Numbered from the stretch's first letter, positions 8,433 to 30,475 are shown. The stretch: DNA of 63,170 nt from a virus (IMGVR_UViG_3300035701_000027:1-63170); one strand, 5' to 3'. The notes: generated by a model not told the origin, from the sequence alone. Numbers and translations: made by a program.

Positions 8433-9170
8433 TTACCTCCGATAGAGTTGAGCCGTCTGTGCCCTGGATTGCGGTGTGCTCATCATGCTCACCATGTTAT
8501 TCATCAGCATCAGCCACCTGTCCCACTGTTGCTGTTCTTTCTTCGCGGCGAGCTCCTCCTCGGAAATTTTTTCCGCGAAGGCCTCTTTTCTTGTGGCGAG
8601 ACCGGCCTCGGTCATAAACTGCCTCTGCTGTCTCTGCGCCTCGGCTTCCTTGAATCCGGTCTCGATGTCGTACCGCCGCTTGCTCTCGGTCATCTGTTCC
8701 TGATACATCTGCTGTGCCTGTTCGCGTGCCTTTCGGTTCTCCCTCATCTGCTGATCTGCGGCCCACCAATTCATGATCAGCGAACCCACAGCCCCTACGC
8801 CGCCCAAGACCGCGCCGACGGCGGTAAGATTAGTTGCTAATTGCCCCGCCATCCGGATTGGAGAGGGTGACGGGGTGGGGGCCCCTGCTACGCTCTGGCC
8901 TGTAATGACGGCTTCGGGAGACGGAACGGCGGAAAGTTGGTATCCACTTTGGACTCCACCAGCAAACTCCCCGCGCGCCGCCTCCTGCCCCTCGTACCAA
9001 TAAGGATCAGAATAAAGAGGAGAAGGAGAGGTACCTTGTCCAAGATTCGTCTGCAACATCGCAGGGCCGGTCGGTGCGCCCCATTGTTCTTGCTGATAAG
9101 GACTGTTGGTAAGCGCGAAATTGGGAGAACCCCCAACCTGCAATCCTGTCGGCGCCAATACTTTTGTCAT
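8433..9170 (-). CDS. Putative ejection (pilot-like) protein with one hydrophobic helix
   Basis: Gly-rich hydrophobic segment AVGAVLGGVGAVGSLIM followed by a Gln-rich coiled coil. Confidence 0.55.
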   Translation of the reverse strand: MTKVLAPTGLQVGGSPNFALTNSPYQQEQWGAPTGPAMLQTNLGQGTSPSPLYSDPYWYEGQEAARGEFAGGVQSGYQLSAVPSPEAVITGQSVAGAPTPSPSPIRMAGQLATNLTAVGAVLGGVGAVGSLIMNWWAADQQMRENRKAREQAQQMYQEQMTESKRRYDIETGFKEAEAQRQQRQFMTEAGLATRKEAFAEKISEEELAAKKEQQQWDRWLMLMNNMVSMMSTPQSRAQTAQLYRR

Positions 9171-9180
9171 GTTCTCTCCC

Positions 9181-12072
9181 TTATTTCCAATCCGACTGAC
9201 GATGATAGCCCTGCACGGTATCCGAAGAAATTTCCACGGGCCCGTTGTCCCACTTATAATATTTGGTTATACTGCGCCCCCACGGATCTGTGAACGTAGC
9301 GGATCTTACGCCAAAATTCTCTCCCCCATGGGCATGCTTTGAATATTTGGCGGATTGGGTCACGGTAATCTTATAGGGAATTCCGCCCTGCGTCATTACA
9401 GCGCTCGTGTAAATCCCCGCCCATCCCGTATTTTTAAGATTCGAGTTAAATTGGGTCGAGGTAGGCATGGTTGATACGAGCTGTGTCAACTGCGGACTTC
9501 CGGCAGGAAGTTTCTTGGCGTAGGTGAAGTCGCCGCGAGCGGTCAGGCTCGTCGCAAAGTTTAGGGCGTTCGTGCTTCCCGCGTTTAAAAATGCCGTGAC
9601 GACATCGGGATCGCCCGTTCCGGTTCCCACGGTGCTCTTATAGGTTGCGAACACGGCTTCCCTGTCCGAACCCTTGCTCATTTCCGTGAGAATGGATTTG
9701 TACTGCGCATCCCCGAGCTTTGCCTTGTCAGCAACAAGGGTGTCCACGTCATAGGTTCGGTATTGCCCGTCGTTACCGAGAATGAAATAATTGCCTGCCT
9801 GATCTCGTCCGATGTTGCCTTCGGTTCCTGCGGCTACGAATGTTGTTTTCCCCTGCGCTCCAAGGGAATTCGGTACGACTTCTCCGTTGAACGTCATCTC
9901 GTCTCCGACTTTCATAGCGGTCGAAGTCACGGTCGGCATCCCGTTCGCCAGGGTGTCGTAGTCAACCTTGACGACTTCGCCCGTGGCGGATCCGAGATGG
10001 TACAACCCCTTGTCGTCCTTATAGACCTTTTGGCTCGACGCCGGATCGACAACTTCCTGGTCTCCGAATTTCACCACTCCGCCGGTTCCGGCGGATTCGG
10101 CGAGCGGGGCGGAGCTGATGCTCAACGTGCCGTCGGTATTGTGCGTGACCTTGTACGCCTTGTTGTCCTTGATGACAACATCAGGATTGTACGGAGACGC
10201 CGTGTAGTCGGACGGAATAGTAGTGCCGATGTTCTGCGACGTTACCGCCGCGCCGAAGAAGCGCGAGAGCACGGGGTTGTCGTAATCGATTTTGAAGGTC
10301 TTGGATCCGTCCGCCGCCGTGACCATCTCCACGCCGCCCTTGTAAACGATCTGCGGAATATAGGCGCGGAAAGCATCGATCCCCTTCTTACCTTCATATT
10401 CAAAGCTCGCAAGACTGTCAGGATCGCTCGGATCATTGTTCCCGCCAAACCAATTCGAGAGAATGTTCTCGTCGGAAAGGCTGTGGCTGTACTGCCACAC
10501 GGGATCGAGGGTATTCTTGACGCCCTCGAATTGCTTTGCCGCCCAATCCGCAGGCATCGGGCCCTGGCCGCCGCTGTTCTTCCACATACGCCCGAGATAA
10601 TCCTGCATCTTCGGATCGTCCATCGTGGTCGCGGGATTGATAGCAAGATCCTGGGAAATAGCGGATCTGGCGTCATTAAACTGTTTGTCCGTGTACGCCT
10701 GCTGGAAGGCGGTGGTATCGACATCGACGCCGTAGAGGGACTTGTAGATGTCTCGGTACTGATCGAAATTGCCGGTCTGGAGCGCCGTTGCGAGCGCGGT
10801 CGTCTTCTGCTGTACGTCGAAACTGCGCTCGGTCTGCCCCGCCGTAAGCAACTGGCCTGCGGCCGTCTGTGCCTGTTCCATCCCTGCTTTCGTGAGACCG
10901 ATTTCGGCCTCCGTGCGACCGAGTCTGGAATTCCGATCAAAAGATTCCATGGCTGCATCTGCGGCTGGGCCCGTAATGCCCTGCGCGTTCAGGCGCATCT
11001 GAAGCTCGGACTTTCCGGCGGCCGTGTTCATCCCGTGCTTCCGGAGCGTCTCGTTGATCATGTTGGCGAGAACGGGGTTTTTGCCTTCTGCGATGCTTCG
11101 CAGGAAATCCGTCCCGTATTCGATGTCGCGTTGGCCCGAAATAGGCAGAGGTGCGACAGCGGGCGGAGCAGGAGCGGGCGCGGGAACCGGAGCAGGCGCA
11201 GGACGAGGCCGAATTGAGGCGTTTTCCCTTTCCAGATCTCCAGACGTATAGGTCGAAACAACCCCCTCGTCTCCGGTATCGGGAGAAGATACGTCGTCTC
11301 CGGTCTGGCGCGCGAAGCCACTCAGGTGTGGTGTTCCGGTCCCGGTTGCGGGCCCAGAAATAGGAAGGGGGGCGCCAGGAGCATTTGCCCGCGATGTCAA
11401 ATCGCTCGAAATGGGCGCCACGTTTTTTGCAATATTTTTTCCGATATCAGCCAAGCCACCGAATTGAAAGCTCGGTCTGATATTGCTTCGAGGGATCGTA
11501 TTCTTTCCCTCGTCCGCCTGCGATACGATGGGAAGCAGGGGGCGAATTTGCTGCTGTCCGGCCTCCGCCGTTGCGATGCGTCTTTTGGCCTCTTCCATGA
11601 TGAGATTTTCAACCGCATCGGGGCCGCCAAGGACGCCGACCATGGGCGCATTGACGTAGTATTCGCCTTTATGATCCTCGAAGGTCTTAACGTCGTTTAC
11701 TTCGTCAGCGACGATTTCCTCGCCGTTATCGCCCGTGTATCCTCCGACTTCGTATCCCGGTTTCCGCCTGTGGCCGGCCTTGATGGATCCCTCGTACCCG
11801 AGAGAGCTCATGGCGATTGGAAACGCGGATTCTGCGGGGATGCCCCTCCCTTTCAATTTCTCGGCAAGACGCTTGAATTTCTCGGTATGAGGGCTTCCAC
11901 CCTTAGCCATGCCGAGAGGCTCGGGGGCCTGCGAGGGCGCCAGGGAGCTCGTATCGGGTACGGGGCTCATAATGGCCTGTCTGCGGCTACGCTGAAATTT
12001 GCTCTGCGGCCCCCCCTTGAGGGCGTCCGGAAGAAGCTCGAGCCACAGGGGTTGGGATGATGTGTTCTGCAT
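9181..12072 (-). CDS. Putative internal virion/ejection protein, 963 aa
   Basis: N-terminal xxxGG motifs and a YEVGGYTG..HKGEYYV module; Gln/Ala-rich helical middle region; synteny. Confidence 0.55.
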   Translation of the reverse strand: MQNTSSQPLWLELLPDALKGGPQSKFQRSRRQAIMSPVPDTSSLAPSQAPEPLGMAKGGSPHTEKFKRLAEKLKGRGIPAESAFPIAMSSLGYEGSIKAGHRRKPGYEVGGYTGDNGEEIVADEVNDVKTFEDHKGEYYVNAPMVGVLGGPDAVENLIMEEAKRRIATAEAGQQQIRPLLPIVSQADEGKNTIPRSNIRPSFQFGGLADIGKNIAKNVAPISSDLTSRANAPGAPLPISGPATGTGTPHLSGFARQTGDDVSSPDTGDEGVVSTYTSGDLERENASIRPRPAPAPVPAPAPAPPAVAPLPISGQRDIEYGTDFLRSIAEGKNPVLANMINETLRKHGMNTAAGKSELQMRLNAQGITGPAADAAMESFDRNSRLGRTEAEIGLTKAGMEQAQTAAGQLLTAGQTERSFDVQQKTTALATALQTGNFDQYRDIYKSLYGVDVDTTAFQQAYTDKQFNDARSAISQDLAINPATTMDDPKMQDYLGRMWKNSGGQGPMPADWAAKQFEGVKNTLDPVWQYSHSLSDENILSNWFGGNNDPSDPDSLASFEYEGKKGIDAFRAYIPQIVYKGGVEMVTAADGSKTFKIDYDNPVLSRFFGAAVTSQNIGTTIPSDYTASPYNPDVVIKDNKAYKVTHNTDGTLSISSAPLAESAGTGGVVKFGDQEVVDPASSQKVYKDDKGLYHLGSATGEVVKVDYDTLANGMPTVTSTAMKVGDEMTFNGEVVPNSLGAQGKTTFVAAGTEGNIGRDQAGNYFILGNDGQYRTYDVDTLVADKAKLGDAQYKSILTEMSKGSDREAVFATYKSTVGTGTGDPDVVTAFLNAGSTNALNFATSLTARGDFTYAKKLPAGSPQLTQLVSTMPTSTQFNSNLKNTGWAGIYTSAVMTQGGIPYKITVTQSAKYSKHAHGGENFGVRSATFTDPWGRSITKYYKWDNGPVEISSDTVQGYHRQSDWK

Positions 12073-12079
12073 ATTGCCC

Positions 12080-12265
12080 TCACTTCAATTGCGCGTTAAG
12101 GCGCGCACGAATATCATTAAGAGTTTTCCAGATAATTTGAAAATTCTGATCGACGATCAGCATGGCCCTGTTGGTATCAAACAACTCCGTATTTTTGTTT
12201 ATCTGTGGCATACTGATTAATTTGCTTTGCAATCCCGCCGATTGATAACTATCCGCCATTTTCAT
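12080..12265 (-). CDS. Small hypothetical virion protein
   Basis: Tightly packed in the operon; overlaps the upstream stop. Confidence 0.5.
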   Translation of the reverse strand: MKMADSYQSAGLQSKLISMPQINKNTELFDTNRAMLIVDQNFQIIWKTLNDIRARLNAQLK

Positions 12266-12735
12266 CTCCTTGGCATGAAGGCATCGCCATTGTTCTCCGT
12301 CAAATCGTCGATGTAGTAGTCTGTGGCTTCCTTCGTCACGTTTTTGTTTATCACCCGAAGATCAAATAAATGTCCATCCCGCCCGTCCATGATAGTCACC
12401 TGTCCGCCATAATTCCTATGAACGATCGGGATCGGCGAGAGCTCCGTCTTGTCGCATTGGATGATGAGGTTGGAGCCCACACGCTTTATTTTTATAATGG
12501 CCCAGCCGATTCCCGCCGCCTGCTCCGCAGAGAAAGGGAGCTGTTGGCGTATGTCATTGATGCCATCCTGGAAGACAAGGAACGCTTCATCACCAACGAT
12601 CTCGATGTTGATAAGCAGATCGCCGACATCAAATTTGATGATGGCAGACCCCGTGGGAACGGGGGCGAAGGATCCCCATCCCTGGGTAACGACAAGGGGG
12701 CCAGCGAGGCCCCCCGTGACGATAAAATTCGACAC
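12262..12735 (-). CDS. Virion protein resembling the C-terminal half of a LamG/ConA-like domain
   Basis: GWAIIKIKRVGSNLIIQCD...GHLFDLRVINK pattern; SD GAGG before GTG. Confidence 0.45.
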   Translation of the reverse strand: MSNFIVTGGLAGPLVVTQGWGSFAPVPTGSAIIKFDVGDLLINIEIVGDEAFLVFQDGINDIRQQLPFSAEQAAGIGWAIIKIKRVGSNLIIQCDKTELSPIPIVHRNYGGQVTIMDGRDGHLFDLRVINKNVTKEATDYYIDDLTENNGDAFMPRR

Positions 12736-12747
12736 GAAGAACCTCGC

Positions 12748-15700
12748 TTAAATCAGGTTTTTTCCGCGAATCGACGGCGTTCCGGTTCCGGCCAGATCGT
12801 CGATGGCGCCGCCGCCAAATTTTTCCACCTTGAATTTCGCAATCTTGTCGGTGCTGTTGTCGTCATATACGACCAAGTACCAATCTGGCGTATCGAAGAC
12901 AAATTCCATCCTGTTGTGCGACATCTTCTGTAAGAATGTTACGTTGTCAGCCGTCGCCTGTACCGTGACCTCTTTCGCTACCGTGGCGTTCTTCGCGCCT
13001 GCCGCGAATCCTGCGACAACTGTGACCTCCTTCGCGCCTGCCGCGAATCCTGCGTCCATTTCCGCCTTGGTCGGGCCGTCATAATCGGCAAGCGCCAAAT
13101 CGACCTGTGTGTTGACTTCCGCCGGTGAAATATCATTGAGGGCGGCAATGTTTGTTATTACCGTATCGACCTTCCCCTCAACGATCGCCGTTCCTCCGAT
13201 TGTTGCGAGGCCGGCCTGAATCTCATTAACGGCGTCAGTAGCCAAGGCGGCCGCCGTCAGAACATCATCATTCATGCCTTCCACTTGTGCGGAAATTCTA
13301 TCAGAATCGGTATTGATGGCATCGGACAAAGATTGGGCCTTGTCACCAATTTCTTTAATTTCCTCGACATCGGCTTTAATATTTCCAGCCTCCGTCAAGG
13401 TTATTGGTAAACGATTTAAAATATCTTCGGTGTCGGCCTTAATCCCATCAAGCCTGGGAGCGAGAACAGCGTCAATCGAAGACAGGGCCCCTGCGGTGAT
13501 GGCATTGACCGTCACGCTTGAGACTGTCGCATCCCAGGCGCCGGCTCCATGAACAGCCGAGAGATAAGAATCAATGGAGGCCAGCGAGTCAATACTGATT
13601 GAATCAACGGATACTCCGCTAATCAATAGGTTTAATTTTGTTAGAACATCATCAATGCGGGCAAGGTAGGCGAAGGCTGAATCATATACTGGATATTCCG
13701 CTATTAACGTATTGAGCGCGTTCCATGCTTGCGTTTTTATCGAAGCCTGTGCGTCAGCTTTTATTACTCCTACCGTGACGCCATTAAGTAGAGTATCAAT
13801 ATCTGAAGCCGCCGCGCTCAAAGTAGCCTCTTTTGCCACTGTCGCGTCAAGAGCCATATCAGCAAGAACAGAAGCAATAGACGCTTGCAATTCTACGACA
13901 TCAGCACCTATCGTTGCGAGACCGTCAAAGTTAAGCAACTGCGCCGCGTTGAAATCTCCAGTGCTTTCATCCTGCTGGATATCTCCATCAGAATTGTTAG
14001 TACCTACGCGATAAGTTTTTGAACCGGGAATATCTTTAAGGACAACCGTCGCCCCCGCCGATTCGTCAATCAATTCTCCATCAAGACCATAAATAGTAAT
14101 AGTCCCGGCGGTGCAAGAAGAATCAATTGTAATTTTTCCGGTAAAACCATTTATTACGATATTTCCAGTTGCTCCCAAGCTACCTAAGATAATCGTCCCT
14201 TGGCATTTACTCAAAAATACGACACCATCAAGAACGGATAGGCCAAAAATTGAGGTATTGAAAAAACAATTTTTAAAAATATTGTTGCTTCCGCTACCCG
14301 CCGCGAAACCTATTAATTGCGCCCCGGCACCTCCCGCCCAATGGCAAGAATCGGCGACAATACCAGACAAATTTGAAATATTGTTGTTTTGGAATCTACA
14401 AAATTTAAAAGCAACCCCCCCAATAGAACCCGATGAATATTCAATTCCAATTCTTTCAAATTGGCAGTAAGAAACATTGGCCGCTATACCAAGCGGATTT
14501 ACGTGGATGCCTCTCCCGAGAACATTCATATTTGTAAGAGCAACAGAAAGAGTTATTCCCGTTGACCTGACGGACAACTTGTAGAGTTTATTGTTATTCG
14601 CTATCGCGATGGCGTCCGCCATGTTGGAGGATGGCTTTTTTGCCGTTCCTATCGGAAAAGTCGTTCCGGCAAATCCACCACTATTATCAACATAAACTGT
14701 CCCGTCCTCAAAGGAGCCGACCTTGTTATATCCAGTTCCATCGTAATCGTCTTCAAAATTTCCAACTGGAATAGTTGTTCCGTTAATTCTCAATACGTCA
14801 GACTTCATCAAGTTAATTGTTTCGTCAATTGCCGCTGACAGGGCCGTGACCTTTGCGGAATTAGCATTGATAGAAACAAGATTGGCATCAAGGATAGGAA
14901 TTGACTCTACGTTCACTTCTTCAACGCTCGCCTTGACATTCCCGCCTTCTGTAAAGTCGAGTTGGTCTGTTATTGCTTCTATGTTGTCAAGGTGATCGTC
15001 AACAGAACCACTGGTAGGAACTCCGCCAGAAGGAGCAAGTTTCATTGCATCCCTGACTTGCTGTGCGGTCAATCCGCTACTTTCGGCATCGGCAATTGCT
15101 TCCAATGAATCAGTGGACTTGGCAAAGGTCTGCGAACCGTTCTTGTTCATTATCTTGTCAATATTGGAATCAATGGCGGGAGTCGGAGCCGTCCCTACTT
15201 TGCTTATATGATCAAGGTCGATGTCTGAAAGAGCCGTATCGACTTGCGTTTTCACTTGTGCGGCAGACAGATTATTAAGGGCTGCCACTGTGGCCTCTTT
15301 TGCCCCGGCTGTGAAGCCCGCATCAACGACGGTTTTCAGATTGGAATTTCCGTATGTTCCGTTGTTGACGATTGCGTAAGCATCCCCGGTCTGCTTCGTG
15401 TTCCCTGTATAGGTGTCGATTGTTCCGACAACCCAATCCTTTATTTTCGCGCCGATAGATAACGCCGTTCTCGCAACGGATAGCAATTCATCCCATATTG
15501 CAGACGCAAGATTTGTCTTAAGAGTGGCGTTCAGGGAAGCCGTAGAAGCCCAGACCTTATCCGCCGCCGCCTGTGCGAATTCGCTTGAACCTATCGCATC
15601 GGCGGCAATCTTCGCCGCAGTAATGGCATCATCCGCGATGGCTCCGACTGCGATTGTGGCCGCAATGGTTTGTCCCGCTGTCAGATCAACGGTCTGGTTC

Positions 15701-16377
15701 ACCTTCGTTCCATTTGTTGTCGGTAAACCGCCATTCGCCCCCGCAACCGCATCGGGCAAACTATTAATCGTTCCGGTGGGAGTCGCCTTATCAAAGAATT
15801 TTGTAAATGCCGCCGAAATCTGTGCGGCTGTTCCGGTAATGACAGAGGCCAAAATCTGTACGAGGTTTGATTTGACGACACCGGAAGTAAAATCAAGCTG
15901 TCCTGCTCCAGAACCGGAAGAAAGAAGAACGCTCGCGCCTATGTCTCTGGCCGTTTGTGCTGTTCCTCCTATCTGAATGACGTTGACGGCAATGTTCTCA
16001 CACTGTAATTCAAAATCAGCCTGTGCGAGTCCCGTTACTCCACTGATGGAAATGACAAGCGCCGTTGACGTAAAGCGTGCGTCCGCGAATTGCAGTTCAT
16101 AAATGCCGGGATGATTCGTTGCGTCAACCTCCTTGAAACGGCATTTGTTAGCAGAGGGAGCGGCATAGGTTCCGAGAGTGGCAATGGTTTCCACATTTGA
16201 ACCGGCCACAGTATAAACCGTTGCGCTTGCCTCATTCAATCGAATTGTGGAAATAATAAGTCCCGTTGAAGCGTTGGTCAGCCCCGTTTTTCCTGCGCCT
16301 GTCGTCACCGTAGAGTCCATGAGTTTGACTCGTAGGACGACACTTGTAGGACTTGCGCCCCTGATTAATTTTGCCAT
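12748..16377 (-). CDS. Long tail fibre/appendage-like protein, 1209 aa
   Basis: Ala/Thr/Asp-rich internal repeats (AALNNLSAAQVKTQVD / AALNDISPAEVNTQVD; AGFxAGAKExTV); central beta-helix-like Asn/Gly/Cys segment. Confidence 0.6.
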   Translation of the reverse strand: MAKLIRGASPTSVVLRVKLMDSTVTTGAGKTGLTNASTGLIISTIRLNEASATVYTVAGSNVETIATLGTYAAPSANKCRFKEVDATNHPGIYELQFADARFTSTALVISISGVTGLAQADFELQCENIAVNVIQIGGTAQTARDIGASVLLSSGSGAGQLDFTSGVVKSNLVQILASVITGTAAQISAAFTKFFDKATPTGTINSLPDAVAGANGGLPTTNGTKVNQTVDLTAGQTIAATIAVGAIADDAITAAKIAADAIGSSEFAQAAADKVWASTASLNATLKTNLASAIWDELLSVARTALSIGAKIKDWVVGTIDTYTGNTKQTGDAYAIVNNGTYGNSNLKTVVDAGFTAGAKEATVAALNNLSAAQVKTQVDTALSDIDLDHISKVGTAPTPAIDSNIDKIMNKNGSQTFAKSTDSLEAIADAESSGLTAQQVRDAMKLAPSGGVPTSGSVDDHLDNIEAITDQLDFTEGGNVKASVEEVNVESIPILDANLVSINANSAKVTALSAAIDETINLMKSDVLRINGTTIPVGNFEDDYDGTGYNKVGSFEDGTVYVDNSGGFAGTTFPIGTAKKPSSNMADAIAIANNNKLYKLSVRSTGITLSVALTNMNVLGRGIHVNPLGIAANVSYCQFERIGIEYSSGSIGGVAFKFCRFQNNNISNLSGIVADSCHWAGGAGAQLIGFAAGSGSNNIFKNCFFNTSIFGLSVLDGVVFLSKCQGTIILGSLGATGNIVINGFTGKITIDSSCTAGTITIYGLDGELIDESAGATVVLKDIPGSKTYRVGTNNSDGDIQQDESTGDFNAAQLLNFDGLATIGADVVELQASIASVLADMALDATVAKEATLSAAASDIDTLLNGVTVGVIKADAQASIKTQAWNALNTLIAEYPVYDSAFAYLARIDDVLTKLNLLISGVSVDSISIDSLASIDSYLSAVHGAGAWDATVSSVTVNAITAGALSSIDAVLAPRLDGIKADTEDILNRLPITLTEAGNIKADVEEIKEIGDKAQSLSDAINTDSDRISAQVEGMNDDVLTAAALATDAVNEIQAGLATIGGTAIVEGKVDTVITNIAALNDISPAEVNTQVDLALADYDGPTKAEMDAGFAAGAKEVTVVAGFAAGAKNATVAKEVTVQATADNVTFLQKMSHNRMEFVFDTPDWYLVVYDDNSTDKIAKFKVEKFGGGAIDDLAGTGTPSIRGKNLI

Positions 16378-16386
16378 TTGTATCTC

Positions 16387-17379
16387 CTATGCGTTTGAAT
16401 ACATCGTATTGTATGCCATCTGATTTTTCATCTGTAGCAATGGCCAATTCCCCGCCGCCGCAACATATTCGCTCGCTCCAATGTCCCAGGCGGCTCCTTG
16501 CGGCCTTGACGTTCCAATAATGTCTGTTGAAAAGCCCAAGGCCGATAAATCAGTACCCGCATTGATGGCATCGGCTCCGGCCTTTAACTGTAAATCTTCC
16601 GCACCGCTTGTCAGGGAAACAAATTGATTGGAAGATGTTTTATTTATCAGGGAATGTGCTCCAGGTGCTGTCGCATCGGAGGACATATTATAGTCACTGC
16701 CAGCATACGTCCCCGAAAAGCAAGTGGTACATCCCATTACGATATTATTGTTATGATAAGAAGCGTTTGTGCCGCCCAGAGCGATTCCGGTCGTACAATT
16801 GTAAACCGTATTGTTGTTTATATATAGTCTGTAAATGTTTAATCCGGTGGCGAACTTGTAAGAACCTTCCCCATAAACAATATTATTGTAAAATTGGTTG
16901 TCGTTTGTTACGTTGCTCGCCCACCAATCTACTGCTTTCCCGGTATTGCTCCCCGCTGTCCGTATAAGAATATTATCAAAAACTCTTCTTCCATATCCAC
17001 CAGAAGCAACCGAAAATATATTTAAATCGGATGTTGACGCTTGGTCAAATATCAATCCACTCACTCGCGTGTAATCATCATCCGGCCAAATCATTTCAAC
17101 GGATGTCGTCTTTATGCAAGCTCCGGTATAAACTCCTGCGACTTTTGCCTTGCCTATATGCTTTGCGGCGCTGTTGGCGCGAAGCCAAATATACCGAGTA
17201 GCATCTACGGTATGTCCCGAAATATCTATCGTTGCCGTGATTGTATAAGTCTCGTTATACAATTCCCCAATATGCCTTTGGTTTGCAGAAACCAAATCGG
17301 CGGGAATGGACGCTAACCATGCCGCGATAGTGGTATAATCGCCGCCGGAAGCCTTAATTGATTTTATGACATCGGCCAT
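16387..17379 (-). CDS. Right-handed beta-helix (pectin-lyase-like) spike/receptor-binding protein
   Basis: SGGDYTTIAAW start; Asn ladders (YNNIVYG, NNNTVYNC, NNNIVMGC); C-terminal DIIGTSRPQGAAWDIGASEY. Confidence 0.7.
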   Translation of the reverse strand: MADVIKSIKASGGDYTTIAAWLASIPADLVSANQRHIGELYNETYTITATIDISGHTVDATRYIWLRANSAAKHIGKAKVAGVYTGACIKTTSVEMIWPDDDYTRVSGLIFDQASTSDLNIFSVASGGYGRRVFDNILIRTAGSNTGKAVDWWASNVTNDNQFYNNIVYGEGSYKFATGLNIYRLYINNNTVYNCTTGIALGGTNASYHNNNIVMGCTTCFSGTYAGSDYNMSSDATAPGAHSLINKTSSNQFVSLTSGAEDLQLKAGADAINAGTDLSALGFSTDIIGTSRPQGAAWDIGASEYVAAAGNWPLLQMKNQMAYNTMYSNA

Positions 17380-17730
17380 TTATTCAACCACCATTATATT
17401 ATCTAAAAATTCATCGTTTGACAATATTAAAATCCCATCATTATCAATCGCCGAATCAACTATGCTCTCTGGAAAAGTGTAGTCCCTGCAATGGGTTTTT
17501 ATCAGGCGTCCCGTTGTTTCATCAGTCCCTTGAAATCTTGGCATGATATATTCAGTGCCTATTTCAACGCCCGGTACCTTTACGACAACGAAAAGAGGCA
17601 GACCTTCATCAGCACCCCAAGTAAAATTGTCTGGCACTATAACTACGGGATATCCTTTTTTAAAACAGGATACCTTGTCAATGTCGGGATCGGAATGGGA
17701 ATCATTAACTGCCTTGACGAGAATTTCCAT
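17380..17730 (-). CDS. Hypothetical protein, partner of the beta-helix gene
   Basis: Abuts both neighbours; acidic 116-aa ORF. Confidence 0.6.
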   Translation of the reverse strand: MEILVKAVNDSHSDPDIDKVSCFKKGYPVVIVPDNFTWGADEGLPLFVVVKVPGVEIGTEYIMPRFQGTDETTGRLIKTHCRDYTFPESIVDSAIDNDGILILSNDEFLDNIMVVE

Positions 17731-17942: not shown

Positions 17943-17943
17943 G

Positions 17944-22445: not shown

Positions 22446-22460
22446 AATCCCCCCTTTCGA

Positions 22461-23324
22461 CTACTTCGGAGAATCAGGCGGCGACTCGGCCTGCGGTTCG
22501 CTCACCGGCTCGGCCTCTTCCGCAACGGGCGCGGGAGCGATCTGCTCCACGATTCCGTTGGCGTCGTACAGCCTGATGATTTCCTTCCTGATTTCCGGCA
22601 CTATGATGTCCCTGTAATATTGGTTCTTCTTCCAATGCCGGCCGCTGTCGAGCTGGAGCTTGTCGATCAACGGTTTGTATCTGGAATAGATCGTTTCTTC
22701 CGCCTGCTTGTCGCACTCCAGCCTGGAGAGCTTCGGCAGGGTCGCGGGATCCGGCGCCTTCGGCATCTTTTCCGCCTGCTTTTCGGCGCTACCGAAAACG
22801 CTTTTCCCCGGATCGGGAGTCACGGGAGGGGCCTCCTCCTTCTTAGGTTCCGAGACCGGCAGGGAGTTTCCGTAAACACCGACGATTCTTGTCCGGACGG
22901 GCTCTTTAACGCCGAGTTCCGTCGCCATCTTCTTGATCTCCGCCTGGATCACTTCTCGGTTCACGGTGCCCGTTGGCGTGATCATGCCGGCGATGGCGTA
23001 GTGCGCGCTGTAAAAAGAGAGGGCCAGAATGCGTCTGTTGTACGGGGTGTCGGCGCAATATGCCGTGGGCACGTTGTTCTCGTCAGGCTCAAAGAAGAGT
23101 TCGCCACGTTCAATCGTCGGCACATAGGATGTCTCCATGAGACGGGGGTTGCGTTTCGCCACAAACCCCAGGATTTCAAAGCCAAAATACGAGGTTCGGA
23201 ATTCGTTTTCCTTTTTCCACCGCAGGATGAAGACATTGACGTTGTTTTCCAGCATCAGGTTAATCTTCTTCTCGGGCGTCATGCCGGCTCGGGCGCCGGT
23301 ATTGATTGCTTGCTGAAGGGCCAT
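22461..23324 (-). CDS. Hypothetical protein downstream of the capsid gene
   Basis: 287-aa ORF with SD AAGGA. Confidence 0.7.
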   Translation of the reverse strand: MALQQAINTGARAGMTPEKKINLMLENNVNVFILRWKKENEFRTSYFGFEILGFVAKRNPRLMETSYVPTIERGELFFEPDENNVPTAYCADTPYNRRILALSFYSAHYAIAGMITPTGTVNREVIQAEIKKMATELGVKEPVRTRIVGVYGNSLPVSEPKKEEAPPVTPDPGKSVFGSAEKQAEKMPKAPDPATLPKLSRLECDKQAEETIYSRYKPLIDKLQLDSGRHWKKNQYYRDIIVPEIRKEIIRLYDANGIVEQIAPAPVAEEAEPVSEPQAESPPDSPK

Positions 23325-23362
23325 TTTTCTTCCTTTTGTTGAATTGCTACTTTTTTGCTACT

Positions 23363-23398
23363 TTTTAAAAATTGGCAGACTACTTCCGCCGTCTGCCA
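23363..23398 (-). terminator. Rho-independent terminator after the major capsid gene
   Basis: TGGCAGAC..GTCTGCCA stem followed by ATTTTT on the minus strand. Confidence 0.65.
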
Positions 23399-23419
23399 GG
23401 GCAGGTTCTTGCTGCTCCC

Positions 23420-24802
23420 TTACGGAGTCACCGTCACCAGGGTCGGCTTGGACATGATAACAAGGCAGGTGCCCCGGTTATACTGTGTCGCAACCTGATC
23501 GGTCTGCGGAGACGTTGGATCCACGTTGTACTGCGCGAGCATGATACCGGCACAGGTGTACGCGCCCTTGCCCTTGACCATTTCGTAGTCGTAGGCCTCG
23601 GTAGCGTACTTGAGCTGTGACACGATCCACTCGACAATACCGCCTTTCGCATACACACAGCCCACGTCAAAGACGAGGTTGCTGGAGCTGTTGAAAGGAG
23701 CGTGGTTTCTGCCGTCCGTGTTACCGGGGCAGAGGAAGCCAGGGGTAAGCGTCCAGGCCGGTGTCGTCCCGTCGCCGGCCACGGTGAGCGTGGCGTAGCG
23801 GGTGTCTTCGACCAGGAGCAGATGGCGAACCCGACAGTAGGCGCCGGGGATCATCTGCTCGATCTTCTGGAGCGCCATGACTTCCTTCCAGATGTAGCCG
23901 ATGTTGGTCTGCGAACCCGTGGGATTCAACAGCTTGATCATCTGCGTGGAAGGCAGGGCGAAGACGAGCGTGGCCTGTCCGCCGATCATGATCGGCTCCA
24001 GCTTCAGGTTCTCGACGCAATGATAGTCGAGCGCGAGCAGGCTCTCGATGGAGAGCTGGGCGTACTCGGGGTGCGTCCAGTTGCTCGTCGCGGCCTTCAG
24101 CGTGGTGCAAATGTTCGCCACGTATGAGCCGGAACCGTCGGCAATGGAATCGTACTTGAATGGCAGGGCGGCGTCCGCGCCGGGATAGTTGGCGCCGACG
24201 GTATCGACCTCATCACGGGTGTCGAAGACCGGCATCCCGCCCAACGCGGTGTTGGGTACGAAGATGTTGTCGTTGAACCTGTGCTTGAGGAAGATGGGAT
24301 CTTCGGTCAGCTCGGCGGCGACCGTCAGCATGGAGGCCTCGCGGATGCGCTTCCCGCGCAATTCCGAGAAGTAGTCAACCATGAGAGGGCCGATCTGGCC
24401 GTAGAGATCGTAGGCGCTCACGTCGTTGGCGTTCACGCCGTAGGTCTCTGTTGCGACCGCTTTTCTGATCAGGTTGTAATAGACCGTCAGGTGACGAAGC
24501 CGGAGGGTCTCTTCCTTGCCGATCAGGGTTGCGGGGCCATGGGACGGCGCACCGCGCAGGCGCATGAGCAGGGGGAAGGTTGTGGAGTGGGCGCCTGTGA
24601 CCTGCTTTTCCATCTTCAGGAAGATGGCGTCAGGCACGTTCGCACCCTTTTCAGAATAGTCCACGATCGCGGACAGTTTCTCGAACACATCGTTGATGAT
24701 CGATTCCGTCCGCAGTTTCGTGTTGTACGCCTTGATCTGAAGGGCGAGAGCGCCCATCCCGGAAAGCGTAACCGGAGTGACTGGAGCTACTTGTGAAGTC
24801 AT
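23420..24802 (-). CDS. Major capsid protein (N4-gp56/DUF4043-like)
   Basis: TFPLLMRLRG..LIGKEETL motif; 460 aa; strong codon bias; follows the scaffold; own terminator. Confidence 0.75.
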   Translation of the reverse strand: MTSQVAPVTPVTLSGMGALALQIKAYNTKLRTESIINDVFEKLSAIVDYSEKGANVPDAIFLKMEKQVTGAHSTTFPLLMRLRGAPSHGPATLIGKEETLRLRHLTVYYNLIRKAVATETYGVNANDVSAYDLYGQIGPLMVDYFSELRGKRIREASMLTVAAELTEDPIFLKHRFNDNIFVPNTALGGMPVFDTRDEVDTVGANYPGADAALPFKYDSIADGSGSYVANICTTLKAATSNWTHPEYAQLSIESLLALDYHCVENLKLEPIMIGGQATLVFALPSTQMIKLLNPTGSQTNIGYIWKEVMALQKIEQMIPGAYCRVRHLLLVEDTRYATLTVAGDGTTPAWTLTPGFLCPGNTDGRNHAPFNSSSNLVFDVGCVYAKGGIVEWIVSQLKYATEAYDYEMVKGKGAYTCAGIMLAQYNVDPTSPQTDQVATQYNRGTCLVIMSKPTLVTVTP

Positions 24803-24829
24803 GAGAAAATTTACCTCGTTTTAATGGTT

Positions 24830-26257
24830 TTAGACACCATCAAGGCGAGGAGCCACCAGCCCGACCTTCTTGAAAGCGGCCTGCCATATCTGGCGCCTGA
24901 CCGGATCCCGCAGAAGCTCCGCCTTTTCCGCCGCATTACGCGGCATGTCGAGGAGGTTTCCTAATTGGGATTCAGTCAGACTATCGACATTAGCCGAGGA
25001 GGCGCCTGTCGGTAAATCGGTTGCAAATCGCTTTTTTTGTTCCTCCGCCGCCAGGAGAGCTTGCGCCCTCGGGTCGGCAGGGGAAGAAGGACTTGGCTGT
25101 TGCGGAGGGGCCTCCGGAGCCGAAGGGCTCGCGGATTCCCCGCCCATCGCCGTCAGGTATCTGTATGTTTCTTCCAGGGTGAACGGAACCTCTTTGCCAG
25201 AGACCGGATCGTTCCGCTTGAGGCGTCTTTTTTCTGCGATAAGATTCAACAGTTTGAAGTAACGGTCGAGATTTTCCGGAGAGCGCAGTCCGATTTTTTC
25301 AGCTTCCGCTCGGAGTAGTTTCCCTTTCTCGCTCATTTGATTGAGAAAGATATCCATGACGGCGAGATTCTGTCTCGGATCCCCGTTGGTTCCGGCCAGT
25401 TGACCGAGATCGTCGAGAAACTCTCGATATTCCCCGTCAAAGACCTCCACGGGCTTTCCGATGTTGAAATCCTCCTTGCCACGGATGAAGGATTCGGCCT
25501 CCCCATACTCGGACTTGACGGATTCCTCCCGCTTCCTACGGGCCTCATCCACCTCAGTCCTTTTCTTGCTGTCGGCTTTTTCCTTCTCCCATTCCTCCCC
25601 GCGCTTTTTGTCGGATTCCTTCAAGCGCTCGATCTCCCGTTCCTGCGCCTGAAGTTTCTCGGAGAGTTTCTTCAGGTACTCGGGGTCGTAGGGGTCGAGA
25701 ACCTCCGCCGCCTTGTCGGCATCGGTGAACTTCGGGTTCTCTGCGGGTTTCGGTTGCGCTACCGGCGCCGGTGCCGGAGCCTCCGAAGGCTTCACAGCCT
25801 TTAAGGCTTCGAGATCGGCGCGCATCTGCGTCTCGCGCTCCCGCATCTCGTTGATGATGCCTTTCTGCCTGCGGATCATCAGCTCTTTTTCCTTCAATCC
25901 CTTCAGGGCCTCCCCCTTGGTCTTGTAGGCCTGCCTGGATCCGTCATCGAATGTTACTTCAAATTTGCCATCGTCGGTCTGACTGACGGCCTGGTGCTTC
26001 TTGTCATCGGCCACGGGGGTCTGTGGCGCGGGTGCAGGGGCCTCCGCCTTCGCAGGCGGATTCTCGGCCTCTGGCGCCGGCGCATCCGGTTCCGTCTTGA
26101 CCTCCTCAAACTTTAGACGACCATCAAGATAGTCGGTCGCGAATTTCGGATCGGACTCGATCCTCTTCACGATCTCCGCCTCGGTCATTTCCATGACTTG
26201 CGGCTCGGCTACCAGCGTCGCCGGTTGCCCTTCGTTATCGGGCTTCAGGTCTTCCAT
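24830..26257 (-). CDS. Capsid scaffolding protein
   Basis: Acidic coiled coil with Pro/Ala linkers, immediately upstream of the capsid gene. Confidence 0.7.
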   Translation of the reverse strand: MEDLKPDNEGQPATLVAEPQVMEMTEAEIVKRIESDPKFATDYLDGRLKFEEVKTEPDAPAPEAENPPAKAEAPAPAPQTPVADDKKHQAVSQTDDGKFEVTFDDGSRQAYKTKGEALKGLKEKELMIRRQKGIINEMRERETQMRADLEALKAVKPSEAPAPAPVAQPKPAENPKFTDADKAAEVLDPYDPEYLKKLSEKLQAQEREIERLKESDKKRGEEWEKEKADSKKRTEVDEARRKREESVKSEYGEAESFIRGKEDFNIGKPVEVFDGEYREFLDDLGQLAGTNGDPRQNLAVMDIFLNQMSEKGKLLRAEAEKIGLRSPENLDRYFKLLNLIAEKRRLKRNDPVSGKEVPFTLEETYRYLTAMGGESASPSAPEAPPQQPSPSSPADPRAQALLAAEEQKKRFATDLPTGASSANVDSLTESQLGNLLDMPRNAAEKAELLRDPVRRQIWQAAFKKVGLVAPRLDGV

Positions 26258-26344
26258 TCTTTGCTCCTTGTTTCCTTCGCGGGGGTGTCTCCGCTTACGG
26301 GTTTATACGTTTGCGCTCGGAAAGGGGTTTCCGCTCCGCGCGCG

Positions 26345-28084
26345 CTATGCCTTTTCTTCGACTGCGGTTTCTCCGCCACGGAAACGACGGCCGCCCATTC
26401 CGGGCCTGGACGCCTCCATCTCTGGGCTTTCAGTCTCCGAGACTATATTCTCGAAAGCCGCGACAAGATCCCTGGCGTCTGCCGCCATTTCCTTCAGGCG
26501 CGCGGCCAGAACGCTGTCGTTCATCGCGTCCTTACGGGCGTTGTCGATGTCCGATGCAAACTGCTTGAGCTCATCGAGATACCGCTCCGCCTCCATCTTT
26601 TCTCCGGAGGAGACTGCGGATTCGAGTTTTCCGAAGAGCTCATCGCCCCGAGAGACGAGTTGCGGGTCGATGCCTTCGGTTCCGGAGTATGAATCAAACG
26701 GGCCTTTCATATCGCCCTCTTTTCCTTTGTCCGGCGGTGTTTCCGCCGGGGTTTCCACGGGGCCGCCTGCCTGGAACCCCGCCCCGGAAGCCACTCCGAC
26801 CTCCGGTTTCGCATTGTACTGAAGCGCGGCCTCGTTTCTCTTGTAGCCGACGCCGACAGCGGTTGTTTCTGTATCCATCTGCGAGACGACCTTGCTGAAT
26901 CGTTTGGTCTCGGCGTCATCGGGCGTTGCGGTCTTGAGTTTGCCTTCCTCAATGACGCAATCATAGACCGTCGCCACGTCTCCAGGCTTTTTGACGCCGA
27001 ATTCTTTTTCGATCTGCGCGCCGGTCATCTTCCGATCCGACACGGGGCCGCCCTTGGCGAAACTCATGTCGGGTTTCTTCTCTGGGAAGTCCTCTTTTTT
27101 GTCGCCCATCGCCTGCTGTTCCGGTTTCGCGGACGGATCCTTTTTCTGCTCGGGACTCTTGGCCGGCAACACGCCGCCCTCGTAATCGCCCTCCACGGGG
27201 CCTCCGTGGAATTTCTTTTCCACGCCTTCCGATTTCCTGGAAGGGTTCATAAAGGGCGCCCTTCCTACCCTGAACCTTCTGCCGAGAGCATTGTTCATGG
27301 CCTCCCTCCGGCGCTGTTCGTCCGCGCTGATCGGAAGATTCCCCGCCGTTGGGGCGGCGGCTTGCGCAAGGGGCCCCTGCGCCGTCGGGGCAACAGGCGT
27401 GGCCGGCGCCGAAATAGGGGTAGGCGAAGTAGGAGCGGCGGGAGCTGACGGCGTGGCCATAGCGCCAGGGGCCGCAAGCGTCGGAGGCGTGGCTTTGCCG
27501 GCCATGCCGGAGACCTGCGAGACCGCCGCCGCCTCCTTGGTCTGGAGAGGATTGACTTCTCCGCCTGCCTGAAATTCAGGCACTTCCTCGCCTGCGACTT
27601 CCTTCTCTTTCGTCACCTTGATCTTCTTCAGGGGCTTGATGTCGATCGGTTTGAATTTCGGTTCGTATTCGGCCGCCTTCCTTATCTCGGTTTCGGGCTC
27701 CTTCCATTCTCCGGCGAGGAGCTGTTTTCCGGTATCGGGATCGATTATGGTTCCATCCCACCTGCCATTCTCATCGATCACCACTTTGATCTTTTTGTCC
27801 TGGAGATTCTTCTCCAGGAGAAGTTTCCATAGGTCACGCCAAGTCTCACCTGTGCCGTATCTCCCCATGTATTCGGCGAATTTCCTTCCGGTCGTGATAT
27901 TCTCTCCGGATTTTAGCTTGCCGGATCCTTCTGCGCCGGATCCAGGAAGCTCGGGCTCGGAAACATCCGTCGCCGTAACATCGGCTGGGGTTTCGGCGGT
28001 ATCGATGTCGATCTCCCGCTTGACCTTGTACTTTTTCTTGGCGAGCGGAGAAGTGATTTCGGTTTCGGGCATACGAATAGCCAT
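26345..28084 (-). CDS. Low-complexity head-module protein with six [FY]x(1-2)GG motifs
   Basis: FQAGGEV, FHGGPV, YEGGVL, FAKGGPV, FQAGGPV, FRGGET; lies between portal and scaffold. Confidence 0.7.
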   Translation of the reverse strand: MAIRMPETEITSPLAKKKYKVKREIDIDTAETPADVTATDVSEPELPGSGAEGSGKLKSGENITTGRKFAEYMGRYGTGETWRDLWKLLLEKNLQDKKIKVVIDENGRWDGTIIDPDTGKQLLAGEWKEPETEIRKAAEYEPKFKPIDIKPLKKIKVTKEKEVAGEEVPEFQAGGEVNPLQTKEAAAVSQVSGMAGKATPPTLAAPGAMATPSAPAAPTSPTPISAPATPVAPTAQGPLAQAAAPTAGNLPISADEQRRREAMNNALGRRFRVGRAPFMNPSRKSEGVEKKFHGGPVEGDYEGGVLPAKSPEQKKDPSAKPEQQAMGDKKEDFPEKKPDMSFAKGGPVSDRKMTGAQIEKEFGVKKPGDVATVYDCVIEEGKLKTATPDDAETKRFSKVVSQMDTETTAVGVGYKRNEAALQYNAKPEVGVASGAGFQAGGPVETPAETPPDKGKEGDMKGPFDSYSGTEGIDPQLVSRGDELFGKLESAVSSGEKMEAERYLDELKQFASDIDNARKDAMNDSVLAARLKEMAADARDLVAAFENIVSETESPEMEASRPGMGGRRFRGGETAVEEKA

Positions 28085-28087
28085 GAC

Positions 28088-30475
28088 TTACTCCTTTGGG
28101 GGTGGTTTCGATTTAAAGCTGATGGACACGCTTCCGCCCGTGGCCTGCGCGACCTGATCCACCATCTCCGCAGGAGACGGAGGCGCCTGTTCTGGCGCGG
28201 GAGCAGGCGCGGCGGCGGCGGGAGCGGTGGGAACGGGTGCGGAAGGTTCCGTCGCTGGCGCTTCCATTGGCCCCGCAACGGGGCCTCCGCCTTGATATCC
28301 CTGACTTTTTTCCGGCGGTACGGGGCCGCCTTCCATGCTACCAATGTTTCCGCCAACGCCCTGTGTCTCGATCGACGGCGCGGCGGCGGCCACTTCTCCG
28401 CCCATCGGGGCCGGAGAGGAAGGAACGGGCGCGGGTGATCCAGGAGCGGCAGGAGGAACGGTGGATGCCGTGGCTTTCGCGGCGGCCGCCTGTTTCTGCA
28501 TGTCGTCGTATTTCTGCGAAATGCCAAGGCTCTGCATTTTCAGGTTGAGAAAGTTAATCTTCAGGGTCTCCAGGACGATACCCTCCTCGATCTCCCTGAA
28601 CTTCATCAGCTTTTCCTTGTCCTTCGGGTTGAAGGTATCGAGGCTTTCGACGAGGGCCGAAGTGAAGACCTGACGTGTGCCCATGGCATCGGGCGGGATC
28701 ACGCGGAGGAGCTCGGTCGCCAGGGCTCGCGTGACCATCCGGTTCGTGGTGGACACCGGCGATTCGCTGATAACAACCTTGTGGCGCGGAAGCTGTGAGA
28801 AATCGTTAAGGGTTTCTCCGGTTTCGTCGTTTTTCACGTTGATGCCGATACTCATGGTGCTGATGCCGTCCGTGTACTTGAACCATCGCTCGACGCCGGC
28901 GATTGTGTACTGGATCTTGGCCTGCTCCATGTAGGCCTCGGCCTTTTCCTGCTCATAGCGCTTCAGGCTCTCGAAGAGGGTGTAGGATTGCTGCTCGGCA
29001 ACCCTGGCCTTCTGCGCGAACAGGTATCCTGATTCTCCGGACTTCTCGCTCCTGGCGTCGAAGACGGCAGGGGCCTTACTGATCCGGTCTGCGTAATCCC
29101 ACATTCGCGTGAGCTGATCCCTGGCGTCCTGCGGGAACTGCGCCTTCGCCACGGGACGGGGATCGAGATTCCGTTGCATGGCGCCGGGGGCTGTCCAGAT
29201 GATTTTGTTGGGCTGGTTGTGGAATTTCTCGAAGTCGAACATCTTGTCTTCGTCGTCCCCGAAAAGCATGGGATCGACGAGTTTCGCCCCGCAAGCCTCG
29301 GTCTCGATGATGTTGGTGATGAGCTCTTCGCGGTAGTTGATCTTGTACTGGATGTCCGCGAGAATGTCAACGATGCCCCTGGCCTTGCCGTTGATGTTGT
29401 CGGCAGACCACGGGAACAACGGCAGGCGTCCGATTTGGATCTCGCATGGCTTCTTTTCCAGAGGATCATTGGTGTCGAGCTGCCGGCAAACCGTTGTGAC
29501 CATGCACACGCGCCTTTTCTCCATGCGCTTGCCGATGCTGTCGGGTTCCCACGACGGATTATTCTTGTTCAGGAATGCGAGCTTCTTGGCGTAATCACCG
29601 CCGGCAGGAAGCGTGAGGCCGGTCGATTTGTCGTATTCGACCTCAACATCCTCCGTGACCATCTCGAATTTCCGGATGATGCGGTAGTAGTTGAAACCCG
29701 TGCCGAAGTCATCGGCCTCGAACATCGGGGTCACGGTGGTATCGTTGATGGAATCAAATTGTTCGCCCTGGCTCTTGATACGTTCGAGATCGCGCTGGAC
29801 GAAGTTGAGGGTATTGACTTTTTCCGGCCATAGCTCCGCGACCTGTGAGCCGGTGAGGAAACTGACCACCCAGCACATCTGCTGATCTCTGCCGGATCCG
29901 CTCTTCCACCTCGGGTCTTTGACGACGTATCCGGGAAGATGCGTGCGGAAAGCGATGTTTCCGAGCGGGTGGTACTTCCGGTCGATAAACATCTCCTCCC
30001 AGGCCTGATAGATGAGGCCGCCCTTGACAAGCGAGGAATAGCTGCCGTCCCAATCCATCATGTTCTTGTCGGAAAGATACATCTGCTTCAGGATTTGAGT
30101 GAGCTTCCCCTCGTCGCCTTCGACAGGAATGTAGTCGGCGTCGAAACGGTTTTTCAGGACGTAGCCGCCGAGGGAATCGATTTTCTGCGTGGTGATGTTG
30201 AAGGTCGCAAGGTCTCGGCCTTCGAGGAGAGCCTGCTGCTGATCGGAGACGGTGTACTGTCCGAGGTCGAGGCCGGCGTAGAGGTTCCAGTTTCTCTGGC
30301 AACGGGCTCGGTCGAGGTTATCCCAATCCCGCGCGCGCTCGAACTCCTGCTCTACGCGGAGAACGTCGGAGAGGATTCCCGTGGTAGAGGCGTCCGTGGG
30401 CACGCCCTGGGAGACGTTGTTGGCGAGGTTGAATTCCTTGTCCAACGGGGTCTGTGCCTGAATCTGCTCTCCCAT
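28088..30475 (-). CDS. Portal protein (P22/N4-like) with Pro/Ala-rich tail
   Basis: G-Q-Y...GR..TFNIT, RGIVDILADIQ..IN and SGESG motifs of podovirus portals; 795 aa. Confidence 0.85.
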   Translation of the reverse strand: MGEQIQAQTPLDKEFNLANNVSQGVPTDASTTGILSDVLRVEQEFERARDWDNLDRARCQRNWNLYAGLDLGQYTVSDQQQALLEGRDLATFNITTQKIDSLGGYVLKNRFDADYIPVEGDEGKLTQILKQMYLSDKNMMDWDGSYSSLVKGGLIYQAWEEMFIDRKYHPLGNIAFRTHLPGYVVKDPRWKSGSGRDQQMCWVVSFLTGSQVAELWPEKVNTLNFVQRDLERIKSQGEQFDSINDTTVTPMFEADDFGTGFNYYRIIRKFEMVTEDVEVEYDKSTGLTLPAGGDYAKKLAFLNKNNPSWEPDSIGKRMEKRRVCMVTTVCRQLDTNDPLEKKPCEIQIGRLPLFPWSADNINGKARGIVDILADIQYKINYREELITNIIETEACGAKLVDPMLFGDDEDKMFDFEKFHNQPNKIIWTAPGAMQRNLDPRPVAKAQFPQDARDQLTRMWDYADRISKAPAVFDARSEKSGESGYLFAQKARVAEQQSYTLFESLKRYEQEKAEAYMEQAKIQYTIAGVERWFKYTDGISTMSIGINVKNDETGETLNDFSQLPRHKVVISESPVSTTNRMVTRALATELLRVIPPDAMGTRQVFTSALVESLDTFNPKDKEKLMKFREIEEGIVLETLKINFLNLKMQSLGISQKYDDMQKQAAAAKATASTVPPAAPGSPAPVPSSPAPMGGEVAAAAPSIETQGVGGNIGSMEGGPVPPEKSQGYQGGGPVAGPMEAPATEPSAPVPTAPAAAAPAPAPEQAPPSPAEMVDQVAQATGGSVSISFKSKPPPKE

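Follow-up and report, generated by a model that had tools for sequence, protein, structure and literature searches.

We describe a short linear motif in the genome of the virus IMGVR_UViG_3300035701_000027 (positions 1-63170; this whole stretch of 63,170 bp is called the window below). The motif is conserved, enriched and shared by four unrelated virion proteins, in which it lies in disordered regions: the C-terminal tail of the portal, a protein of 579 amino acids (aa) encoded next to it, and ejection-type proteins of 963 and 245 aa. Its consensus, as read from the sequences, is G-[F/Y/M]-x-x-G-G-x-[V/T], with Φ for the [F/Y/M] position, and is sharper than that of the preliminary description, an earlier account of this DNA. 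We give a probability of roughly 40% to the reading that the motif works as a multivalent sticker, tethering head-internal proteins to the portal. With its direct terminal repeats, the window represents a complete virus record, and its virion operon occupies bases 225-30475 of the minus strand in T7-like gene order. Portal (795 aa), 579-aa protein, scaffold-type protein (475 aa) and major capsid protein (460 aa) are followed by proteins of 287 and 229 aa, a 1203-aa tube-type protein and fibre-type proteins, and then by proteins of 963, 245 and 365 aa and a 2134-aa polyvalent protein. The positions of all motif copies are given in Table 1.

All 13 peptides listed in the preliminary description are present where it had placed them (two in the portal, six in the 579-aa protein, three in the 963-aa protein and two in the 245-aa protein). 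Further copies are LKGGP at residues 18-22 of the 963-aa protein, and PMGGEV and ATGGSVSISF in the portal tail. As had been remarked, the codons differ: compared over 27 nucleotides, 16 copies show a mean pairwise nucleotide identity of 0.40 (maximum 0.63) and use all four Gly codons, and with identities this low the copies are not recent DNA repeats. For enrichment, occurrences of [FYML]x(1,2)GG were counted against 5000 within-protein shuffles, made both globally and in local blocks of 40 aa. The four proteins contain 18 matches where this composition-matched null gives 5.9-6.2 (6.2 in the local blocks; P value <= 2e-4), while the remaining 12 operon proteins show no enrichment, with 13 observed and 13-14 expected. 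Taken singly, the 579-aa protein has 6 matches against 1.2-1.6 expected (P value 0.003-0.005) and the portal 4 against 1.1-1.3 (P value 0.03-0.05), two of the portal's four lying in the folded core. A narrower pattern, which was picked after the data had been seen, occurs 8 times against 0.2 expected. The excess recurs among homologues, with 23 matches against 4.6 expected in eight sequences of the 579 family and, for seven sequences of the 963 family, 28 within the first 300 aa against 3.8; in neither family did any of 2000 shuffles reach the observed count.

A tally of 67 instances brought out preferences at positions outside the search pattern, with G four residues before GG in 35 and V, T or I two residues after GG in 47, and these define the motif as G-Φ-x-x-G-G-x-[V/T]. 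Together with the shuffles and the differing codons, the conservation of the motif in homologues of 28-48% identity supports the proposal that selection acts on the peptide. As a separate observation, the x positions are often occupied by Cys (MCKGG, YCKGG, FCKGG, FMCGG, KECGG), sometimes with His nearby, in P0012 / L040 2692-6258 and in the 579-family members of L002, L015, P0002 and P0003; such copies may have a metal or disulfide chemistry.

Conservation in homologues is seen as invariant motif positions in the 579, 963 and 245 families, in each of which the motif forms a conserved island within otherwise free sequence. The 579 family comprises nine members, including those read from loci, and has only 18 invariant columns at 28-48% identity. 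Among these columns are G436, G440, G441 and V443 of copy 5, unchanged in all nine, and G175 of copy 1. AlphaFold2, given the nine-row alignment, predicts folded parts at residues 58-125 and 348-402 and a three-helix bundle at 460-555, and all six copies have a predicted local distance difference test score (pLDDT) below 50. A Foldseek search of this model against PDB and BFVD returned nothing at E <= 0.001, the three-helix bundle being generic, and ESM Atlas gave nothing usable for the protein. A metagenome scan for the family found 10 loci, about five of which repeat contigs already counted; one is clearly a new member and has five copies.

In the 963 family, G106, Y107, G110, G111, G205 and G206 are invariant among eight sequences. 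Residues 104-143 form a module, GYEVGG-YTGDNG…FEDHKGEYYVNAP, with 14 positions unchanged in all eight (K104, G106, Y107, G110, G111, G114, G117, D123, F131, H134, G136, E137, A142 and P143) and with the arrangement GG, [YF]TG, HxGE plus hydrophobics, GG and then G[FY]xxGG. Three homologues have 11-12 residues inserted between GYxxGG and YTGD, which indicates that the motif copy is a separable unit. The module also stands at the N terminus of internal proteins in the relatives G001, G002, G003, G006 and G009. Two of these, G006 and G009, are distant (portal identities 27% and 29%) and lack the 579 gene, yet carry the module, which therefore predates the spreading of copies into the portal tail and the 579 family. 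For residues 1-230, AlphaFold2 with eight sequences gives no fold (mean pLDDT 48.9) and shows no docking of a copy in cis. The N terminus and the module matched no family in Pfam, NCBIfam or PHROGs, even at E 10; the best ESM Atlas hit of residues 1-215, a crAss cargo-protein cluster with a score of 0.76, falls below the noise bar, and a sequence search of solved structures with the family gave chance-level matches only. The 245 family, aligned from three sequences, is invariant at the positions listed in Table 1. That the copies lie in disorder is thus supported by AlphaFold2 for the 579-aa protein and the 963 N terminus, and by composition only for the portal tail and the 245 N terminus.

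Searches with tblastn of 50,697 isolated phage records found no relative of the portal or of the 579-aa protein and no relevant match to the 963 module; relatives of the two proteins occur in metagenomic virus contigs only. We analysed 27 loci with a portal relative, calling genes with a simple open reading frame (ORF) caller and leaving out L036, which holds only the first 200 portal residues at a contig end. In all five loci with a portal identity of at least 47%, as in the window, an extra gene lies between portal and scaffold; in these five loci it encodes 206-543 aa and carries at least one motif copy. At identities of 36% or less, the next ORF is 364-515 aa long in all 20 loci with downstream sequence, and 12 of these ORFs were aligned with the scaffold family. 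The portal tail has an F/Y-x-x-GG copy in four of the five close loci, and tails of relatives end in MGFKQGGVI, IGYQGGRMS, AYSGGGPT or SAFKGGGGM. Among 129 full-length portal representatives from an exhaustive search, three have the aromatic tail copy and the other 13 matching tails have M-x-GG in Q/M/G/P-rich sequence. The portal C terminus itself reads GGSVSISFKSKPP (window 28091-28144, minus strand), and its VSISFK end is found in just two of the 129 representatives, the close P0016 and the distant P0061/G006.

Copy number and carrier protein shift between relatives. In the complete genome G003, aromatic copies are missing from the portal tail; the 206-aa protein contains one and the 963-type protein seven or more. 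Counted over whole genomes, the strict pattern exceeds expectation in the window (13 against 4.0 expected) and in G003 (10 against 3.4), but not in the distant G006 (5 against 4.4). Among T7 virion proteins, the small ejected protein gp6.7 (L012 865-1131) has VEFGGSS and a C-terminal SAFGGKK, and no motif was found otherwise; the motif is thus not general to T7-like phages.

The preliminary description had likened the 963 module to a module of tape-measure C termini. This likeness holds at the level of pattern for lambda gpH and T5 pb2, but not at the level of profiles. The combination of GG, aromatic-x-G and, within about 25 residues, HxxE plus hydrophobics is found in the 963-aa protein (GGYTG…HKGEYYV), in gpH (GGFTG…HRGEFVF) and in pb2 (GGMMYPG…HGTEVV). 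In gpH, the pattern occupies residues 733-758, with GYATGGYVG at 776-784, and lies outside Pfam Tape_meas_lam_C (627-701). Of the PHROG families, 18 match the last 153 residues of gpH, and 11 of the 18 are annotated as tape measure, so this part is common to many tape-measure families. A profile of 11 podophage modules was run against gpH, pb2, 1,905 ORFs of relative loci and 400 shuffles, and neither gpH nor pb2 scored; pairwise BLASTP gave E 0.018 over 35 residues. The N terminus of the G006 protein matched PHROGs weakly, all three matches being tape-measure families (E 0.021, 0.06 and 0.14).

T5 pb2 is cut close to the pattern, and lambda gpH probably is. In gpH, cryo-electron microscopy does not resolve residues from about 690 to 817, a cut in a glycine-rich region removes some 14 kDa from the C terminus, and the site and the protease are stated to be unknown (PMC12617516); a piece of that mass would imply a cut near 713-721, 12-20 residues before FATGG. 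For T5 pb2, the cut is placed directly after R1127, and beside it lies a "metallopeptidase motif" for which muralytic activity is reported (PMC10038345). The sequence there is FVPR followed, after the cut, by AEGGMMYPGVSYQMGEHGTEVV, which begins AEGGMMYPG…GEHGTEVV, so that the reported cut falls two residues before the GG heading the module. A zinc-metallopeptidase motif has been placed at residues 1142-1164 of a T5-like pb2 in PMC3326045, and the released piece, pb2C, is proposed there and in PMC10038345 to digest peptidoglycan in the periplasm.

The reading as a tether follows from a conserved motif in disordered sequence, from several copies per protein, from copies and carriers that shift, and from its presence both on the portal tail and on head-internal proteins. 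The carriers would all lie inside the head, these being the inward-facing portal tail, the 579-aa protein and the leaders of the 963- and 245-aa ejection-type proteins. To judge from its sequence and from a weak match to a Kelch repeat, the motif would most likely fold as a hairpin of strand, Gly-Gly turn and strand. At procapsid assembly, it may act as a multivalent sticker by which the ejection proteins and the 579-aa protein are tethered to the twelve portal tails, either homotypically or through one common partner, and the tethered proteins would thereby be packaged and come to rest where the exit channel opens into the head. Of this, we infer the hairpin shape, the role as a tether and its timing. 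A bolder and rather doubtful version has the hairpins pair with each other, so that the twelve portal tails, 579-aa protein and ejection leaders form a single intermolecular beta-sheet or gel at the channel's inner mouth, a sequence-encoded "Houdinisome" that sets which proteins leave first. If that were true, the same hairpin heading the lambda and T5 tape-measure pieces would be a "first-out" code shared by podophages and siphophages and would predict the position of the gpH cut.

Several results weigh against the tether. AlphaFold2 docks no motif copy onto the 579-aa protein's own domains, and no binding partner was identified. The spacing from the aromatic residue to GG varies between one and two residues. 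Taken alone, the in-window counts of the 963-aa protein (6 against 2.7-2.8 expected, P value 0.06) and of the 245-aa protein (2 against 0.6-0.8, P value 0.13-0.19) are not significant. The close relative L014/G003 lacks the aromatic copy in its portal tail and has no copies in its 245-type protein, and in whole-genome counts the strict pattern shows a weak excess in G001 (7 against 3.5) and none in G002 (3 against 3.1). With about 10 distinct members, the 579 family is small, and a single clade underlies the phyletic pattern.

The main rival, because of the T5 cut site, is that the motifs are sites of proteolytic maturation, a phage or host protease cutting at or beside Gly-Gly to trim the portal tail and to free fragments of internal proteins. 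Hydrophobic-x-G-G is the cut site of several virus proteases, and the cut two residues before the module GG in pb2 and the one implied 12-20 residues before FATGG in gpH point the same way. We nevertheless find this rather unlikely. Pfam searches covering 16 proteins of the operon and 29 further ORFs, mostly of about 120 aa or more, found no protease in the virion operon and only an M15 peptidase, likely the endolysin, elsewhere; there is no prohead protease at the usual place in the operon, and no cognate protease of the double-glycine type near the motifs in the scanned ORFs. A targeting sequence of the T4 type would be a single N-terminal tag that a prohead protease removes, whereas the copies here are multiple and internal. 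Conservation from four residues before to two after GG, with a spacing that varies, is more in keeping with a binding or structural element than with a single cut site, the reported T5 cut follows Arg and precedes GG, and cuts at the portal copies would take off an end of the tail that a close relative conserves. Alternatively, the motif could act in the host envelope once ejection has taken place, within a module directed at the cell wall, with the portal and 579 copies secondary. The HxxE module does stand at the N terminus of internal proteins in six podophage genomes, distant ones included, no lytic transglycosylase was found by Pfam in the internal proteins of this phage, and the equivalent stretch of pb2 has the metallopeptidase motif and the proposed peptidoglycan digestion noted above. 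We doubt this too, since the portal carries copies but is not ejected, the 579 and portal copies have no HxxE nearby, and the phage has a separate M15 peptidase. The zinc-carboxypeptidase pattern (M14 type, region 1, around H-[STAG]-x-E) fits residues 1135-1157 of pb2 and neither the 963-aa protein nor gpH.

The motif might also have no specific function, a hydrophobic residue and a Gly-Gly turn being a low-cost means of opening or closing a strand that recurs in Gly/Pro/Ala-rich linkers. Motif-like strings do occur in folded proteins, such as VYAKGGIVEW in the capsid, the distant Q/M/G/P-rich portal tails carry M-x-GG by composition, and T7 gp6.7 has F-GG without the remainder of the motif. 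Such an origin appears unlikely in view of the 18 matches against 6.2 in shuffles that keep the composition of 40-aa blocks, the invariant positions with free flanks across homologues, the preferences outside the search pattern, and the lack of enrichment in the other 12 operon proteins and genome-wide in G006. Least probable by far is the conjugation that the preliminary description had proposed, in which a cut Gly-Gly or Gly-Gly-Glu carboxyl end is ligated to other proteins in ubiquitin- or Pup-like tagging. Glu directly follows GG more often than any other residue does (14 of the 67 instances) and the genome encodes an Amidoligase_2 protein beside a GATase_4-like protein, but the ATP-grasp ligase said to lie in the virion operon is not there. 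ATP-grasp_4, ATP-grasp_3 and R2K_3 had no match in the genome at E <= 1, and the Pfam scan of the same operon proteins and ORFs found no ATP-grasp. The amidoligase, the only ligase-like gene, lies on the plus strand outside the virion operon, and no cut is known. Nor does it follow the motif: it is present in two of four records of the motif clade (the window and G001; G002, 85% complete, and the motif-rich, complete G003 are without it) and in two of four non-motif relatives (G004 and G005, but neither G006 nor G007), half of the eight records being incomplete. The supposed link between di-glycine ends and an operon ligase thus fails. The pair of Amidoligase_2 and GATase_4-like genes (window 39981-42667, plus strand, in this order) is found in some relatives, independently of the motif.

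Table 1. Motif copies, their carriers and related genes in the window
Feature	Position	Strand	Remarks
Portal, 795 aa	28088..30475	-	P22-type core to about residue 626, then Pro/Ala-rich C-terminal tail; Pfam P22_portal, E 4.8e-32; PHROG portal
Portal-tail copy MGGEV, residues 691-695	28391..28405	-	additional to the preliminary description
Portal-tail copy GSMEGGPVP	28316..28342	-	listed in the preliminary description
Portal-tail copy GYQGGGPVA	28274..28300	-	listed in the preliminary description
Portal-tail element ATGGSV	28127..28144	-	runs into SISFK at the C terminus; additional to the preliminary description; shared with two of 129 full-length portal representatives (P0016, P0061)
579-aa protein	26345..28084	-	three small folded domains and disordered spacers; between portal and scaffold; clade-specific
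579 copy 1, EFQAGGEVN	27551..27577	-	G175 invariant in the family
579 copies 2 and 3, KKFHGGPVE and GDYEGGVLP	27164..27217	-	L001 has KFHGGEVEGGYEG at the same place
579 copy 4, SFAKGGPVS	27038..27064	-	continues into the middle domain's first strand
579 copy 5, GFQAGGPVE	26753..26779	-	just before the C-terminal three-helix bundle
579 copy 6, RRFRGGETA	26363..26389	-	C-terminal tail
Scaffold-type protein, 475 aa	24830..26257	-	aligned with 17 relatives; candidate motif partner
Major capsid protein, 460 aa	23420..24802	-	PHROG major head protein, E 1.3e-6; candidate motif partner
963-aa internal (ejection-type) protein	9181..12072	-	T7-like position in gene order; seven homologues; motif-rich N-terminal leader of about 210 aa
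963 copy DALKGGPQS	12001..12027	-	kept in all seven homologues that have the N terminus
963 copy GMAKGGSPH	11887..11913	-	alignment
963 module K104-P143, GYEVGG-YTGDNG…F.DHKGEYYVNAP	11644..11763	-	alignment of eight
963 copy SFQFGGLAD	11446..11472	-	G205 and G206 invariant
245-aa protein	8433..9170	-	disordered-looking N-terminal half, hydrophobic segment; T7 gp14-like position
245 copy GLQVGGSPN	9120..9146	-	G13, G14 and P16 invariant in three of three sequences
245 copy GEFAGGVQS	8946..8972	-	F69, G71 and G72 invariant in three of three sequences
Amidoligase_2-domain protein, 561 aa	39981..41666	+	only ligase-like gene; outside the virion operon; not linked to the motif

Other features of the virion operon and the genome were recorded alongside. 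Scaffold proteins of the close clade have at residues ~100-118 (gene at window 24830-26257, minus strand) a short strand-looking insert, DDGKFEVTFDDGSRQAY, that is absent in distant ones and that is a candidate partner of the motif. The capsid string VYAKGGIVEW (residues 384-393; gene at 23420-24802, minus strand) resembles the motif inside a folded protein and is kept in L001 and L013, not in L002. The 2134-aa polyvalent protein (window 925-7329, minus strand) has LPD38 at residues 1813-2006 (Pfam E 1.2e-43), a HEIDH zincin-like site near residue 1010 that was missed by Pfam, and long Pro/Glu/Ala-rich spacers. Four consecutive minus-strand genes at 52310-55219, for a radical SAM protein, an FkbM-type methyltransferase and two family-2 glycosyltransferases, may form a sugar-modification cluster. 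The minus-strand stretches 58280-59283, 225-914 and 61156-61713 together hold genes for an M15_4 peptidase (the likely endolysin noted above), a Dam methyltransferase and two HNH endonucleases.

Even for P22 and T7, the field has yet to settle how ejection proteins are selected, packed and retained at the portal. A limited search of open-access text, including the review PMC8954989, turned up no sequence signal for this. An eight-residue motif common to the portal tail and its cargo offers a handle that can be mutated, and the mapping of the reported T5 cut at the pattern suggests a concrete place to look for the gpH cut. Should the motif be a structural turn only, the finding reduces to a minor observation on a new phage clade.

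Known systems resemble the motif in part. The designed Kelch sequence YAVGGYDG matched GYATGGYVG of lambda weakly (E 0.0016-2.6); the Kelch repeat offers the same picture of a strand, a GG turn and a strand as an analogy of shape, but this phage has no propeller. With the C-terminal module of tape-measure proteins (gpH 733-784, pb2 1130-1149), the 963 module has in common ΦxxGG-[YF]xG, followed 14-24 residues on by HxxE plus hydrophobics, and carriers that leave the virion through the channel, lambda having a second Y-A-T-G-G-Y-V. The module heads the released fragment in T5, and it probably does so in lambda; the likeness is one of pattern only, and the module is N-terminal in this podophage. 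The targeting sequence of T4 internal proteins and the cargo-loading peptides of encapsulins are likewise short flexible peptides that bring cargo inside an HK97-fold shell. These tags are single and terminal and have a known receptor, the scaffold core or the shell, and the T4 tag is removed by a protease, whereas the present phage has two to eight internal copies per protein, carries them on the portal as well, and has no protease gene that we found for them. Double-glycine sites, in virus core proteins cut by their proteases and in bacteriocin leaders, also have a hydrophobic residue two to three positions before Gly-Gly; here, Pfam found no matching cysteine protease in the scanned ORFs, and conservation extends beyond that of a usual site. 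A counterpart to the proposed tether is the "Houdinisome" of P22, described as ejection proteins held around a disordered part of the portal's C-terminal barrel, with scaffold needed for their incorporation (PMC4992974). In both cases, internal proteins that leave first would sit at the inner end of the portal, next to a disordered portal part, the binding in this phage being our proposal by analogy. The accessible text describes no sequence motif for P22 (PMC4992974), and its portal has a long helix where this one has a Pro/Ala-rich tail. In this phage, by contrast, portal tail and cargo carry the same motif, and a further motif-rich protein is encoded beside the portal.

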